A stretch of DNA of 64,000 nucleotides from positions 1-64,000 of the forward strand of contig JAEOSU010000027.1 in NCBI GenBank assembly GCA_016840165.1. Direction: 5' to 3'. The notes under the pieces were generated by a model. The model was not told the origin of the DNA and made no database searches. It was given only the letters and a program-made list of their open reading frames with translations. Source of the DNA: Promethearchaeota archaeon (GTDB taxonomy: Archaea; Asgardarchaeota; Lokiarchaeia; Sigyniarchaeales; SOKP01). Each line of letters begins with the position of its first letter. Within the stretch, counting starts at the first letter, position 1. The translations under genes and the position numbers were made by a program. Below are positions 28,516 to 46,265 of this stretch, one piece after another.

Positions 28516-29037
28516 TTAATCTTTTATATCTTCTGCGTCATCTTCAATTTTATCATAATATTCGATGTCCATAAGCCCACCCGATCGCTCTTCCCTCCAA
28601 TGGGCTTTTATGGGCATTCCTACATAAGTGTCTTTTACATCGATATCTGGATGTAATTCGGCAATGCTTGAAGTATCAGTGCCATCATGATGGACTAAGA
28701 CCATCGGTCTTTCGACAACCTCTCCTGTTTCAGAATCTTTCAAATAAGCAATAGCATATGTTGAGACACTTGCAGTATCCCTAATATCTACCCATTTATC
28801 GGGTTTCACCAAGCACTTTCCACATACTAATCGAGGGGGATAAAAGACTCTATTACACCCTGAACATCGATTTGCTACTAATTTTTGCTCTTTTAATTTA
28901 CCCAAAAAGGGTTTCATATGAGTTATGTTGAATTTATATTTGTAACTAGTGAGATGCCAATTTGCAGGCATTGTACGAGTTCTCACATAATCCTTTTTCA
29001 CATAATCTAACGATTTTCTTTGAGTCATTTTTGACAT
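28516..29037 (-). CDS. DUF35/ChsH2-type Zn-ribbon OB-fold protein
   Basis: RCSGC..VFYPPR..CGKC. ATG at 29037 is preceded by GGAGGTGA. Confidence 0.88.
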   Translation of the reverse strand: MSKMTQRKSLDYVKKDYVRTRTMPANWHLTSYKYKFNITHMKPFLGKLKEQKLVANRCSGCNRVFYPPRLVCGKCLVKPDKWVDIRDTASVSTYAIAYLKDSETGEVVERPMVLVHHDGTDTSSIAELHPDIDVKDTYVGMPIKAHWREERSGGLMDIEYYDKIEDDAEDIKD

Positions 29038-37771: not shown

Positions 37772-38068
37772 TTGGCCATATCTCGAACACTAAGTAAAGC
37801 TATTTTAAAGCCAGAAGTTCGAATAAAATTGAAAATCTGGAATACATACTTGACTGGGAAATTGAAACGATTCGATAATTATATGAATTTAATTGTAGAG
37901 GATGCCAAAGAAATTTATTTCGGACGGGGTGGCAAAAGAAGTAAAGATTTAGGAACTGTCATGATCCGAGGTGCCTCTATTATCTTTATTGGGCAAGATC
38001 GGGAAAAACTGATTTTTACAGATAATGAAGATTCACTTATGTATCGCGAAGAAGATGAGTCATCATAG
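37772..38068 (+). CDS. Sm/Lsm-like archaeal protein
   Basis: G.L..FD.YMNLIV.DA (Sm1) and IRG.SII.I (Sm2). Upstream of rpl37e as in other archaea. Confidence 0.9.
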   Translation: MAISRTLSKAILKPEVRIKLKIWNTYLTGKLKRFDNYMNLIVEDAKEIYFGRGGKRSKDLGTVMIRGASIIFIGQDREKLIFTDNEDSLMYREEDESS

Positions 38069-38086
38069 ATAAGGGGTTGAATAAAT

Positions 38087-38287
38087 ATGGGAAAAGGTAC
38101 ACCAAGTAAAGGTAAGAAAAATAAAGCAGCTAGTCATAAAACTTGTCGAAGATGTGGAAAACACTCTTATCATCGTCGAAAGCGTTATTGTGCGAGTTGT
38201 GGTTTTGGTAAGTCAGCAAAATTACGTAAACCTAGTTGGAGAAACCGATATAAAGCTTTTAACGGTAATAAGGGTTTTTATAGGTAA
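38087..38287 (+). CDS. rpl37e: 50S ribosomal protein L37e
   Basis: MGKGTPS.GK, CRRCG...YH....CASCGFG. Confidence 0.96.
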
Positions 38288-38400
38288 TTTCTCGTTATAA
38301 TTTAAATTGGAACCACTTTAAACCTATATTGAGTTATACATCGCAATTTATTTTTACGTCTTAAATATCTTTTTATTTTCAGTTTTCTTTATTCTAAATT

Positions 38401-38772
38401 ATGGATTCATTGCAAGTTGAAGGAATTGATAAAGAATTAGCTAAGTTTGAGAGTATTGGGGGAATCTTGGGTTTAGCAGTCGTTGATGATAATGGTCTCA
38501 CTATTCTTTCACGGTTACCACGTGCAATTGAAGAGCGTAAATTTGGAGCAATGGCTGCTACGATTTTAGGTGCAATGGAAACTGCAATAATCCCCTTTGG
38601 CGAGGATTTAATTAATTTAACAATCGAGTTTGAAGAGTCTCAATTAATTATTATGAGTTCAGAGAATAAAATTATACTAGTCGTATTAATGGAACTTGAA
38701 ATTGATTTAGGATTTATGCTATTAGAGATAGAAGAAATATTACGCAATATTAAAAATATTTTAAGAGGTTAA
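38401..38772 (+). CDS. Roadblock/LC7 domain protein
   Basis: GILGLAVVDDNGL.I.S and FGAMAATILG. Confidence 0.85.
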   Translation: MDSLQVEGIDKELAKFESIGGILGLAVVDDNGLTILSRLPRAIEERKFGAMAATILGAMETAIIPFGEDLINLTIEFEESQLIIMSSENKIILVVLMELEIDLGFMLLEIEEILRNIKNILRG

Positions 38773-38779
38773 AAATAAT

Positions 38780-39520
38780 ATGTTGACCAAGGAAGAACGA
38801 GAAAGATATAACAGACAAATTATCTCTCCTTCAATAGGAGAAGAGGGCCAAGAAAAATTAGGAAAAATAAGAGTACTACAAATTGGGGCAGGAGGTTTAG
38901 GTTCTCCTTTCGCTTTGTATATAGTTGCTGCAGGAATTAAAGAATTAACGATTATTGATAACGATGTTATCTCTCTTTCGAATTTACAACGTCAAATTCT
39001 TTATAATGAAAGCCAAATAGGCATGGCTAAAGTTGTTGCGGCTAAGAAACTGCTGGAAAGTAGAAATTCTAATGTAAAGATTAATATTCATCAAGATTAC
39101 ATCAATGAGGCCTCCATTGAAAAATATGCGAGCGAAAAGAACTATGATTTTATCGTTGATTGTAGTGATAATTTCAAAACTAAATTTTTAGTTAATCGAA
39201 CCGCAATTAAATATAATATGAAATGTGTCATAGCAGGGATTAAAGATTTCTTTGGTCAAATAATGACCATAGACCCAAAAGTCTCTGCCTGCTATCAATG
39301 TGTTTTTAATGAACCTTTGGAATCTCAGAATAGCTTAAAACCATTACCTGTGATTGGAGTCACTCCAGGAGTTTTAGGAACATTAGAAGCATTAGAGGTT
39401 ATTAAGACGACTTTAGGTTTACCAAATCTCGAGAATAAGCTATTAATGGTCAATTTACTTAACTTAATGTTTGACGTAATAGATTTAGTAAAAAATGAGA
39501 AGTGTATTTGCTCAAAATAA
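38780..39520 (+). CDS. ThiF/MoeB/UbaA (E1-like) adenylyltransferase
   Basis: RY.RQI, GAGGLG, D.D.ISLSNLQRQ, DCSDNF and CYQC. Confidence 0.92.
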   Translation: MLTKEERERYNRQIISPSIGEEGQEKLGKIRVLQIGAGGLGSPFALYIVAAGIKELTIIDNDVISLSNLQRQILYNESQIGMAKVVAAKKLLESRNSNVKINIHQDYINEASIEKYASEKNYDFIVDCSDNFKTKFLVNRTAIKYNMKCVIAGIKDFFGQIMTIDPKVSACYQCVFNEPLESQNSLKPLPVIGVTPGVLGTLEALEVIKTTLGLPNLENKLLMVNLLNLMFDVIDLVKNEKCICSK

Positions 39521-42719: not shown

Positions 42720-44213
42720 TCATTTTGATTTAAGAAGAAACTGGGTAATTTTCAATTGTTTTCTGTCATCGAGATATTTTAAGAATGCTCTAGTCGGTTT
42801 TCCGGTTGGAATTGCACTAGATTTAGTTTTCGTTTCGTATCTCTGAATATCACGATGAGAAAATTGATGTTCATTCATTTGATCGTTGAACTTGAATAGC
42901 CATTTAACAAAATTTTTATATAACCTTCCGTTAATTCCAGCTTTTGATTTATGGTATTTCTCATAATATTCAACGTCTTTATCAGAGTATTCGGTATAAT
43001 AACGATAATTCTGGCCCATCCAAAAAATATGAGAAACAGAATCTGGAAAATCACTAATTCTACAGTTTGTTAATTTTACTTTCTTTAAGGACTCCATATC
43101 TGCTAAAAATTCGGGAATCTCGTGTATATCCATATTTTCCGAAAGATCGAGAGTTTCTAAATGCTTTAATCCTTTAATACCTTCAATTTTTTTAATATAA
43201 TTATTCTTTAAATTTAATTCTTTTAAATTTATTAAATTTTCAAGACCGCTTATCATTGATATTCTATTATTACTCAAATCTAATTTCTCTATAGACTTGG
43301 AAATATTATTTATTCCTTGAATATCTAGAATGTTATCTATCATTTTATTCGACAAATTAAGTGTTTTGTCAATTAAAAGTCCAATTAGATTATCATGATA
43401 CTTAACAAGATTAAAATCTAAATCCTCATAATTTATTTGGGCTTTATTTAAAAATTTTAAAAGAGGAAACCCCCGGTGATTTTTATATTTATTATAAATA
43501 AATTCCACATAAGTTCGCAGAAACTCAATAGGTATTTTTTCCATAGCCTTAATAAGGATTAAATATTTGTAGGAAAAACGAAAGTTGCCCAAAAATTTGG
43601 ATGTAGATTTTTTAGCGTTGTTAACTGCATCTTGATTATGAAAATCCTCCAGATATGCAATTATTTTACGTGAATATTCATCAATTGAGGGAAAATCAAT
43701 ATCCACTAAAACACTTTCAAATTCTTCTTCATTAAGATAGTATAAGTATCCATTTTGAGTTAAAAAGCGAACAACACTCGGATGGCCAGTAGCATAACGA
43801 ATTGCGATCTCTTCTTTGAATCTACTATTAGCTAATGGATCTCCTGAATCTGATAGCGCCTTCAGTAATGGAAATGCTAAGTTGCGATGTAATATTCGAG
43901 TATCGTAGTTATTATCCACCCAAGCTTGAATATTTGAACAATGTCCCCAAAACTCGGTTTCAGGGGGGATTAAATTATGATTACGCTCCATCTTACGATC
44001 TAACTTTGACGCAGCTTCATCTATTGATCTAATCTCGTCATATTCCTTTATCTTGTCTACAGGAATGTTTAGTAAAAGATACATACATTGTCGAAAAGGT
44101 CGATTATTGACGTATATGACTGTCCTTCGATTCTCTAATCTTAAGCTTAAGTATTTATTTATTTTAAACTCATTATTAATTGGCCTTTTATCTATAGATG
44201 GATTGACAAACAT
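42720..44213 (-). CDS. Leucine-rich repeat protein with Lokiarchaeal N-terminal domain and C-terminal PIP-box-like motif
   Basis: LxxLxLxxN repeats (LDLSNNRI, LNLKNNYI, LDLSEN). N-terminal EFWGHCSNIQAW. C-terminal QLKITQFL. Confidence 0.85.
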   Translation of the reverse strand: MFVNPSIDKRPINNEFKINKYLSLRLENRRTVIYVNNRPFRQCMYLLLNIPVDKIKEYDEIRSIDEAASKLDRKMERNHNLIPPETEFWGHCSNIQAWVDNNYDTRILHRNLAFPLLKALSDSGDPLANSRFKEEIAIRYATGHPSVVRFLTQNGYLYYLNEEEFESVLVDIDFPSIDEYSRKIIAYLEDFHNQDAVNNAKKSTSKFLGNFRFSYKYLILIKAMEKIPIEFLRTYVEFIYNKYKNHRGFPLLKFLNKAQINYEDLDFNLVKYHDNLIGLLIDKTLNLSNKMIDNILDIQGINNISKSIEKLDLSNNRISMISGLENLINLKELNLKNNYIKKIEGIKGLKHLETLDLSENMDIHEIPEFLADMESLKKVKLTNCRISDFPDSVSHIFWMGQNYRYYTEYSDKDVEYYEKYHKSKAGINGRLYKNFVKWLFKFNDQMNEHQFSHRDIQRYETKTKSSAIPTGKPTRAFLKYLDDRKQLKITQFLLKSK

Positions 44214-44358
44214 GACTAAATAGATGATGTACAGAGATGAAAGGAAGGATTTTTGTTATTTCAAAAATAATAAATTAAACTATATAAAACCAAGGGCTAT
44301 ACAAATTTTTAAAAAAAATAAAAAAAAATATCAAAAAAAGCTGTTAAGAGATTCCTAT

Positions 44359-44613
44359 TTAGGCTCCACCAGCTTGGGTTGCCATTACGGTTATTACATC
44401 TTTTTTAGGATGGATACCGACCTTAGCGAACTTTAGATTGTCGGGTAATACTTTTCCTTTGAAAATAAATTGGATCGCTAAAATTGGATTAAGTTTATAC
44501 TCTCTTTGAACAGTTTTCTTAATTTCTGCTATAGATTGATTAGGATCTACCTCAATAAGCTTAATTGCTTGATCGGGTGGAACACCAGTAAGTCTAAATC
44601 GATATTGGGTAAT
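44359..44613 (-). CDS. Ubiquitin-like protein (84 aa, C-terminal GG-A), ATT start; not in ORF track
   Basis: Hand translation: ITQYRFRLTGVPPDQAIKLIEVDPNQSIAEIKKTVQREYKLNPILAIQFIFKGKVLPDNLKFAKVGIHPKKDVITVMATQAGGA*. Beta-grasp pattern, IFKGKVLPD motif, di-glycine. SD-like AAGGTGA 6 nt upstream. Confidence 0.85.
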   Translation of the reverse strand: MTQYRFRLTGVPPDQAIKLIEVDPNQSIAEIKKTVQREYKLNPILAIQFIFKGKVLPDNLKFAKVGIHPKKDVITVMATQAGGA

Positions 44614-44768
44614 CTTTTTTCACCTTGAGTTTTTTTATAATTTGATAATTTTATCTTAATTTAATAATTAGTCTTGTAATTAAGATATAAGGTAAACGGT
44701 CTAACAGAGTATACTTTAGTATGAGTATTATGCTCATATATAAAGAAAAATTGAGATTCTCACTAATT

Positions 44769-44954
44769 TTAAAATCGAAACGGTTCTGGGGGCGGAGTAG
44801 GTGGACCAGGTGGATAAGGTCCGGGAGATGGACCTGGTCTCGATGGACCACGTCCTATTCGGTTTTCGATTTGTGAAATTCTTGCTTCTATTTTGCCTAG
44901 TCTCTCTTCTATTCTTTTTATTCTTTCAATTATATTTGGAGTGTCTATTCCCAT
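44769..44954 (-). CDS. Small coiled-coil protein with proline-rich C-terminus
   Basis: IERIKRIEERLGKIEARISQIENRI heptads followed by GPSRPGPSPGPYPPGPPTPPPEPFRF. GC-rich codons stand out from the AT-rich flanks. Confidence 0.65.
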   Translation of the reverse strand: MGIDTPNIIERIKRIEERLGKIEARISQIENRIGRGPSRPGPSPGPYPPGPPTPPPEPFRF

Positions 44955-45173: not shown

Positions 45174-46265
45174 ATGGAAAGCTGGAATATTTCGAAAAAA
45201 TTGAAAAATGACATGTTAAAGAAATCTGCTAACATTGAAGATAATAGCCGACGAATATTATTTATCTTAAGAAATTTAGGGCCGCAGAGGTTTACCAATT
45301 TAGTAAAATATTCAAATTTAAGCCGATCCACGGTTTCTAAATATCTTAAGCTTCATAGTAAGAATAATAACGTCGAACAGAAATTAATTACTGATAAAGA
45401 TACCAATAATCAGTATCAAGGTTATGTCATTACCGAAAAAGGAATAGAGAAATTGGGCGAGGGTCCATTAAGACTAAAAGATGAGCTTTTAATTATCAAT
45501 GAATTAAAGGAAAATGTACGTAGACTTGAGGAACTAATAGCCTTTTTCAAAAAAATTAATTTGGAAGACCCTTTTATCATCCATATCATAAGAATAGTAT
45601 CGAAAATAGGAGATAATTTTTTTGAACTACAGCAAGATAGAGATTTGTTTTTATCATTGTTTTACATCTTTTATAATTCAATTCTCGGTCAGGGTGCATT
45701 AGCAAATAGATATTGGCGTTTTTATAAAGATGGAAGTCAAAAATTTAAAGGATATAAATTAAATATTGACCAGTTCTGTAAACTTTTTGAAGTGAGAAAG
45801 GAAGCAATAAATTATTTAGCTCGATTAAAATTAATTCAAAGCGATTTTGGATTTTATTTAATTAAACGTGAGAATAGTGACTTCTATTTTCATGAAGAGG
45901 ATCTACTCGGCACTACAACTTTAAGACTTATTAGGGATAGGTTGTTTGATGAGATAATAAATTTACAGGAAGGTATATCAGAAGCAATATTTAACTTAGA
46001 CATCATGTCTGAAGAAATAGCGGAACAATTAAGTGAAATGGGTCTAATCTGGGGAGCAATTAAACACCAATTTCAGTTATTATTAGTAAATCTAATAGTA
46101 AAAATAGCGATTGATATGGGTTTTTTAGATATAGAACGAGAAAAACTAATGAATGCAGTTGCTCAATCGAAAATGCTCACTCTCTCTAATGAAGGTAAAA
46201 TGCTGCAGGAATCAATAGAAGAGGGGAAAATTTTACTTTCAAATTTAAATATTCTTACAACGTAA
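45174..46265 (+). CDS. Winged-helix (ArsR/MarR-like) DNA-binding protein
   Basis: RILFIL...RFTNL....LSRSTVSKYL...YVITEKG. Confidence 0.75.
   Translation: MESWNISKKLKNDMLKKSANIEDNSRRILFILRNLGPQRFTNLVKYSNLSRSTVSKYLKLHSKNNNVEQKLITDKDTNNQYQGYVITEKGIEKLGEGPLRLKDELLIINELKENVRRLEELIAFFKKINLEDPFIIHIIRIVSKIGDNFFELQQDRDLFLSLFYIFYNSILGQGALANRYWRFYKDGSQKFKGYKLNIDQFCKLFEVRKEAINYLARLKLIQSDFGFYLIKRENSDFYFHEEDLLGTTTLRLIRDRLFDEIINLQEGISEAIFNLDIMSEEIAEQLSEMGLIWGAIKHQFQLLLVNLIVKIAIDMGFLDIEREKLMNAVAQSKMLTLSNEGKMLQESIEEGKILLSNLNILTT

Follow-up and report, generated by a model that had tools for sequence, protein, structure and literature searches.

A Lokiarchaeal ubiquitin gene with a predicted AUU start behind a Shine-Dalgarno motif

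Within a stretch of 64,000 nucleotides from a Promethearchaeota archaeon of the Lokiarchaeia (contig JAEOSU010000027.1, positions 1 to 64,000; hereafter the window), we found that the minus strand carries the gene for the Lokiarchaeal ubiquitin in a frame that opens with ATT rather than with ATG, GTG or TTG. The explanation that we consider likely as a whole is that this ubiquitin is made from an AUU codon lying behind a Shine-Dalgarno (SD) motif, and that the precursor is then trimmed and conjugated. The coding sequence spans 44359..44613 and consists of 84 sense codons followed by a TAA stop (44361-44359); its assignment draws on the translation, a PF00240 match, an AlphaFold2 model and the orthologues. 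Translated from the near-cognate ATT at 44611..44613, the product reads ITQYRFRLTG...VMATQAGGA. An in-frame TGA (44622-44620) lies three codons 5' of the ATT, where it forms the last three bases of the SD motif AAGGTGA, and the only ATG, GTG or TTG in the ubiquitin frame is the codon of Met77, so that the frame is missing from an ORF list restricted to these canonical starts. An earlier note, made from the letters of the window, had pointed to an 84-codon minus-strand ORF with a ubiquitin-like pattern, to the TGA three codons upstream and the absence of a canonical start, and to the likeness between the sequence in front of this start, AAGGTGAAAAAAG-ATT, and that of the minus-strand gene starting at 29037, GGAGGTGAAAAAG-ATG. 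The TGA and the missing start were verified in the sequence, both start contexts read as quoted, and the observation is accurate in every detail.

The ubiquitin-like pattern itself was borne out by several searches. The product matches the Pfam family PF00240 with 40.4 bits (cut-off 25.4; E 2.5e-10) over profile positions 11-71 of 72, and a sequence search of the PDB returned ubiquitin chains and UBL domains. A search of a large protein database gave 190 homologues, several of them named ‘ubiquitin-like protein’ of Promethearchaeota or Lokiarchaeota and one originating from Ca. Lokiarchaeum ossiferum, and 54 of the 61 genomes searched (the window's own genome, G000, and 60 relatives) have a match, the orthologues being 66-98% identical. 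In its own genome, which is 99.7% complete, the gene is the sole close copy. The AlphaFold2 model, for which 44 homologues were aligned (pLDDT 92.7, pTM 0.81), adopts a beta-grasp fold with the order beta-beta-alpha-beta-beta, in which beta-strand 1 corresponds to residues 2-8. When this model was compared with the PDB using Foldseek, 428 matches were obtained at E<=0.001, the best of which were ubiquitin, SUMO, NEDD8 and the Caldiarchaeum ubiquitin 6fnn_C, with TM-scores to 1ubq of 0.76/0.83. The family signature of the SAMP/MoaD/ThiS modifiers is absent from the protein, no ThiS or MoaD family appearing among its Pfam matches even at E<=10. The reading of the gene as a eukaryote-type Ubl, as opposed to a SAMP/MoaD-like one, thus holds for the family match, for the predicted fold and for the best structural matches alike.

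The suggestion that the gene encodes a hidden new modifier fared less well, since the protein is an orthologue of a ubiquitin that has already been published. Hatano et al. 2022 (Nat Commun, PMC9192718) printed the sequence ‘Lokiarch_37670|Ub’ in their Supplementary Data 1, with the end GG-ISIIH, and in the same study Lokiarch_37670, as the Lokiarchaeal ubiquitin, bound UEV-domain proteins in a yeast two-hybrid assay. Counted by eye, 76 of 82 residues (~93%) are identical to the printed sequence, six of residues 2-83 being different. Judged by sequence, the gene is the Lokiarchaeal ubiquitin, a single-copy orthologue of Lokiarch_37670. The two proteins (the latter from Lokiarchaeum sp. GC14_75) are alike in length class, in sequence and in the ...VMATQAGG end followed by a tail, but Lokiarch_37670 starts with ATG (MTQ...) and carries ISIIH after GG, whereas the window's gene starts with ATT and its tail is a single Ala. 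With eukaryotic ubiquitin, NEDD8 and SUMO the protein shares the beta-grasp fold and the C-terminal Gly-Gly; however, it is only ~22% identical to eukaryotic ubiquitin and has eight extra residues around beta-strands 1 and 2, and its gene is a single unit rather than a polyubiquitin or a ribosomal-protein fusion.

We compared the start codon by reading 53 orthologous and paralogous copies as DNA, and found that the ATT aligns codon for codon with the ATG, TTG or GTG of relatives. Most copies have ATG at the aligned codon. Within the window's genus, TTG (one copy), GTG (one), ACG (five) and ATT (four, namely the window's gene, two orthologues and one paralogue) also occur at this position, and the copies sampled outside the genus all have a canonical start. 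The open frame upstream holds no canonical codon in two of the ATT genes and in all but one of the five ACG genes. In the AlphaFold2 model beta-strand 1 begins at residue 2, so a start 3' of the ATT would not be expected to yield a whole domain. From the alignment and the model together, we infer that translation of this ubiquitin would have to begin at the ATT. Pairwise comparison of the five ACG-start species gave 8-33 synonymous and 0 non-synonymous changes, from which it follows that selection continued after the start codon changed. As for how often such changes arose, a single origin was not rejected by AU tests, either for the ATT starts (p 0.15) or for the ACG starts (p 0.26), on a gene tree of 246 columns that is poorly resolved. 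The ATT paralogue, a second and diverged ubiquitin copy in one congener (L035; G020:C18:14968-15816), is 88% identical; its ATT start comes with no canonical alternative, the protein has a long C-terminal extension, and the SD motif is the strongest of the set (-10.3 kcal/mol).

The SD motif of the window's gene, AAGGTGA, lies 6 nt before the ATT on the minus strand (44620..44626). It is complementary to the 3' end of the 16S rRNA of the same genome (GGATCACCTCCT), with a predicted duplex of -8.5 kcal/mol. A motif of the (G/A/T)GTGA type precedes the start of every orthologue by 5, 6 or 7 nt. Because the spacing between GTGA and the start varies in this way, the frame of the GTG inside the motif differs among the orthologues, all three frames being represented, and in the window this GTG is one base out of frame; both a start at this GTG and a frameshift from it are therefore disfavoured. 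The mean predicted SD duplex is -8.4 kcal/mol for genes with near-cognate starts (n=9) versus -4.8 kcal/mol for those with canonical starts (n=25), the genomes being related and hence not independent. On the 3' side, three oligo-T runs (T7, T8 and T8), read from the sequence, follow the stop codon at 44311..44339 on the minus strand; oligo-T terminates archaeal RNA polymerase, and these runs are a probable archaeal transcription terminator.

The same kind of start recurs elsewhere in the genome. A plain genome-wide count of start codons was set aside as confounded, because GTG and TGA both occur within the SD motif. Instead, in open frames of at least 100 codons, we counted the codons found 5-8 nt after GGTGA where no canonical start follows for at least 10 codons. 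Across the whole genome, ATT was found 13 times and ATA 10 times in this position, while every other non-canonical codon occurred at most twice, and no comparable excess was seen after control pentamers. Moreover, six housekeeping genes (loci L056-L061, on contigs C50, C54, C102, C58 and C51) need an ATT, ATA, ATC or ACG start, since in each of them the Pfam domain begins ahead of every canonical start, and all six have strong SD motifs. In the HisA-type gene (ATT) the domain runs from residue 6 and the first canonical codon comes 15 codons after the start; in the gene for imidazoleglycerol-phosphate dehydratase (IGPD, HisB; ACG) the corresponding figures are residue 32 and 98 codons, and in that for a GFO/IDH/MocA oxidoreductase (ATT) residue 2 and 42 codons. 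The domains of NAPRTase (ATT), glycerophosphodiester phosphodiesterase (GDPD; ATC) and an ABC ATPase (ATA) likewise begin before the first canonical codon.

A further gene with such a start encodes aIF1 (SUI1), located on the minus strand of contig C49 (34399-34737, locus L079; relatives L080-L108). No ATG, GTG or TTG precedes the codons of its N-terminal zinc knuckle, and the start region reads GGTTGTGA-N9-ATT AAA GA in each of the 18 genomes of the genus that gave a match. The start is ATA in two genomes belonging to another genus, and most other genera searched have TTG, GTG or ATG. In archaea, aIF1 rejects non-AUG codons (PMC6237735); the start-codon fidelity factor itself thus appears, from these alignments, to start at AUU. 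We also observed that the frame of threonine synthase, just beyond the window (contig C4 at ~65111, plus strand; L075:72-1259), opens with GAGGT-N6-ATT ATT, and that its CxxC...CPxC zinc ribbon is encoded ahead of codon 66, the first canonical start, an arrangement that fits an ATT start, though Pfam matches alone are not decisive. No paper on near-cognate starts in Asgard archaea turned up in literature searches. With regard to the initiator tRNA, none of the 11-13 tRNA genes that ARAGORN recognised in this 99.7% complete genome has a CAU anticodon, and a pattern search of the genome for the initiator anticodon arm found nothing. As Lokiarchaeial tRNAs are often intron-rich, the missing CAU tRNA says nothing about an unusual initiator, and the low tRNA count is presumably due to unusual introns.

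One alternative to an SD-led start is that transcription from a TATA-like sequence, TTATAAAA, located ~25 nt upstream of the ATT, yields a leaderless or near-leaderless mRNA, in which case the SD-like motif would be promoter-proximal DNA that lies outside the message. The spacing of TTATAAAA to the ATT is indeed close to the usual distance between an archaeal TATA box and the transcription start, and SD motifs are, according to a review (PMC7531240), not widespread in the one annotated Lokiarchaeon that was examined. However, a GTGA-type motif persists at 5-7 nt from the start in orthologues whose upstream A/T tracts differ, and this motif is stronger in front of near-cognate starts. Throughout the genome, moreover, the enrichment of ATT and ATA is specific to positions behind SD motifs, and a better TATA consensus, TTTATATA, lies ~125 nt upstream of the ATT. 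We therefore regard a leaderless message as improbable.

Less probable still is that ribosomes initiate at the out-of-frame GTG within the SD motif and then enter the ubiquitin frame by a +1 ribosomal slip, or that transcriptional slippage on AAAAAAG has the same outcome. The arrangement of the letters would allow it, since after GTG AAA AAA G the ubiquitin frame lies one base on, and the Lys-tRNA could re-pair from AAA to AAG. Yet the A-run is not conserved: the spacers of one orthologue (L008) and of the ACG-start genes hold no slippery run. The GTG inside the motif, moreover, is not itself preceded by an SD at a suitable distance, and the simpler AUU start is common to many genes that have no such A-run, all of which leaves this route with very little to recommend it over direct initiation at the AUU.

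Whether the ATT is real and the gene alive was assessed by comparing the ubiquitin region with Logan contigs of four studies. Contigs of the likely source sample match the region exactly. Three other studies, P2, P3 and P4, provided contigs of 151, 2,087 and 574 bases, respectively. The P2 contig covers 44599-44749 with zero differences. The other two both span the start region: the P3 contig has 26 differences and no gap over 1,195 bases, and the P4 contig has 17 differences and one gap at an unplaced position (X11), and in neither is any change listed within 44527-44646. The ATT and the run of six A's are thus common to diverged strains from other places, which largely answers the point, raised earlier as a matter for raw reads, of whether the codon is ATT or ATG and how long the A-run is. 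Compared with the window, the P3 and P4 contigs have 3 and 10 differences within the gene, and these 13 are synonymous without exception, so that both a sequencing error and a dead gene are disfavoured. In comparisons with relatives, dN/dS of the ubiquitin gene is ~0.01-0.04. The ATT is present in the DNA, and the gene is intact and under strong purifying selection.

These data bear directly on the two remaining alternatives. A ubiquitin frame that has no canonical start could be a pseudogene that lost its ATG and is no longer translated, but this is the sole close copy in a nearly complete genome, the strain variants that carry the ATT differ from it only synonymously, its dN/dS versus relatives is as low as given above, and the same start habit is seen in essential genes, e.g., those for aIF1, HisA and HisB; we thus see only a slight chance of a dead gene. 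The slimmest chance of all falls to a sequencing or assembly error, be it of a true ATG or of an A-run that is in truth one base shorter, whereby GTG at 44623-44621 would start the gene (with five A's, GTG AAA AAG ATT would be in frame, and an in-frame GTG does occur three codons upstream in some orthologues, e.g., L023 and L026-L028), as the ATT and the A-run are identical in the contigs of three other studies (X5, X6 and X11) and in the likely source sample, with no substitution or indel listed there, and the GTGA-to-start distance of 5, 6 or 7 nt in relatives places this GTG in all three frames, i.e., makes it non-coding.

The ATT start does not, however, single out ubiquitin. The idea that the ATT tunes the translation of ubiquitin in particular was weakened by the comparison, as near-cognate starts occur genome-wide and genus-wide and the ATT and ACG orthologues have stronger SD motifs than the ATG ones. 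A stronger SD before a near-cognate start looks more like compensation than down-tuning and, together with the genome-wide spread of such starts, it makes a general property of the lineage likelier than a device specific to ubiquitin.

At the other end of the protein, the codons for Gly82 and Gly83 and for the one-residue tail Ala84 occupy 44362..44370 on the minus strand. Both glycines are invariant in the 44 aligned homologues, GG is found in nearly all orthologues, and what follows it is either a stop, one varying residue (A, V, I, L, N, C, S, F, Q, K, Y or R) or sometimes a longer tail. Such constancy of GG, next to a tail that may be missing or may vary freely, suits a precursor that would be trimmed, consistent with the description of the GG-Ala end in the earlier note, which had named a loss of GG in orthologues as one observation that would count against it. 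In eukaryotes, the last repeat of polyubiquitin genes similarly carries one or more extra residues after GG.

Candidate enzymes for processing and conjugation are encoded elsewhere in the genome. Contig C58 (97300-104800, locus L077) holds a ubiquitin operon with the order Ubl (114 aa), E1 (410), E2 (175) and JAB (277), upstream of which lie two further genes for Ubl-domain proteins; a second E1/E2 pair is found on contig C53, and the genome has four more JAB matches. The Ubl within the C58 operon ends in AG-RLI and not in GG. Among the Ubl-domain proteins of the genome whose C-termini were read, the window's ubiquitin is the only PF00240 protein found to end in GG.

The ubiquitin gene itself sits apart from this machinery. 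A co-oriented minus-strand gene 155 nt upstream (44769..44954) encodes a mini-protein of 61 aa with a coiled coil and a proline-rich part, for which no Pfam match was found; by tblastn, it adjoins ubiquitin in 16 genus loci. Beyond it lies a divergent winged-helix (wHTH) gene of 363 aa (45174-46265, plus strand), which is kept beside ubiquitin in nearly all genus loci (tblastn). Downstream, an LRR protein is encoded at 42720-44213; we considered it as a part of the ubiquitin system and rejected it, the LRR gene not being a conserved neighbour. Some 5 kb from ubiquitin, genes for an LSm protein, a Roadblock/LC7 protein and a 246-aa ThiF-family protein (E1-like/MoeB-type) stand in a row on the plus strand (37772-39520). 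The ThiF-family gene (38780-39520) was likewise considered as a partner of ubiquitin, but no link was found, and it sits among unrelated genes.

The sequence of events that we propose, in which initiation at AUU is put forward from the comparative data and trimming and conjugation are what we infer for the protein once made, is as follows. The AAGGUGA of the message would pair with the 3' end of the 16S rRNA and thereby place the small ribosomal subunit, and the initiator Met-tRNA would start at the AUU 6 nt downstream with one mismatch. The same SD-led mechanism would serve the many other genes of the genome that start with AUU, AUA, AUC or ACG, including that for aIF1. The product would start with Met, which, given the specificity of methionine aminopeptidase, would probably be removed before Thr. 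The C-terminal Ala would probably be trimmed as well to expose Gly-Gly, and the likeliest enzyme for this is a JAB/MPN+ protease, by analogy with Caldiarchaeum Rpn11. The trimmed ubiquitin would then be activated and transferred by E1-like and E2-like enzymes such as those of the C58 operon and the C53 pair.

The closest precedent for the processing step is the ubiquitin of Caldiarchaeum subterraneum, for which, according to Fuchs et al. 2018 (PMC6043591), the precursor is processed by a JAB/MPN+ (Rpn11-type) protease that exposes GG. It is an archaeal ubiquitin made as a precursor, as is predicted for the window's, and its structure (PDB 6fnn) was among the structural matches of our model (6fnn_C); JAB genes are likewise present in the window's genome. 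In Caldiarchaeum, however, ubiquitin sits in an E1-E2-RING-Rpn11 operon, whereas the window's ubiquitin stands alone beside the wHTH and mini-protein genes.

For the initiation step, the precedents are bacterial: infC and pcnB of E. coli have AUU starts behind an SD motif, and NCBI table 11 lists ATT, ATC and ATA as initiators. There, as proposed for the window's ubiquitin, a near-cognate AUU at normal SD spacing is read by the initiator tRNA. In bacteria, though, this concerns one or two genes, while here it would concern many genes and an archaeal machinery (aIF1, aIF1A and aIF2). A further parallel is that in infC the discriminating factor itself starts at AUU, as aIF1 appears to do here, autoregulation of the latter being suggested by analogy. 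Extending this analogy to bacterial IF3, we tentatively raise the idea, which we hold to be rather doubtful, that the AUU start of aIF1 may set the stringency of start-codon selection by feedback, and that genes starting with AUU, AUA or ACG, among them that of ubiquitin in about a quarter of the species, may be translated in proportion to its relaxation. If true, how much ubiquitin is supplied would depend on the condition of the initiation machinery.

As this ubiquitin was itself already known, the value of the finding lies mainly in annotation and in what it says about near-cognate initiation in the Lokiarchaeia. The gene is invisible to gene callers restricted to ATG, GTG and TTG; that standard callers would miss it was anticipated, and is seen both in the canonical-start ORF list, which omits the frame, and in mis-called orthologues in the database. 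Some of the latter, from genomes with ATT or ACG starts, are truncated to a start at Leu8 or Val11 and thereby lose beta-strand 1, while others are extended from stray upstream codons. Because ATT- and ACG-start genes are missed or mis-called in this way, surveys of Asgard ubiquitin can wrongly score genomes as having none. Beyond annotation, the gene adds one more well-supported case to the evidence that Lokiarchaeia tolerate near-cognate starts on important genes, including that of aIF1, and such starts bear on how eukaryote-like start-site selection evolved.
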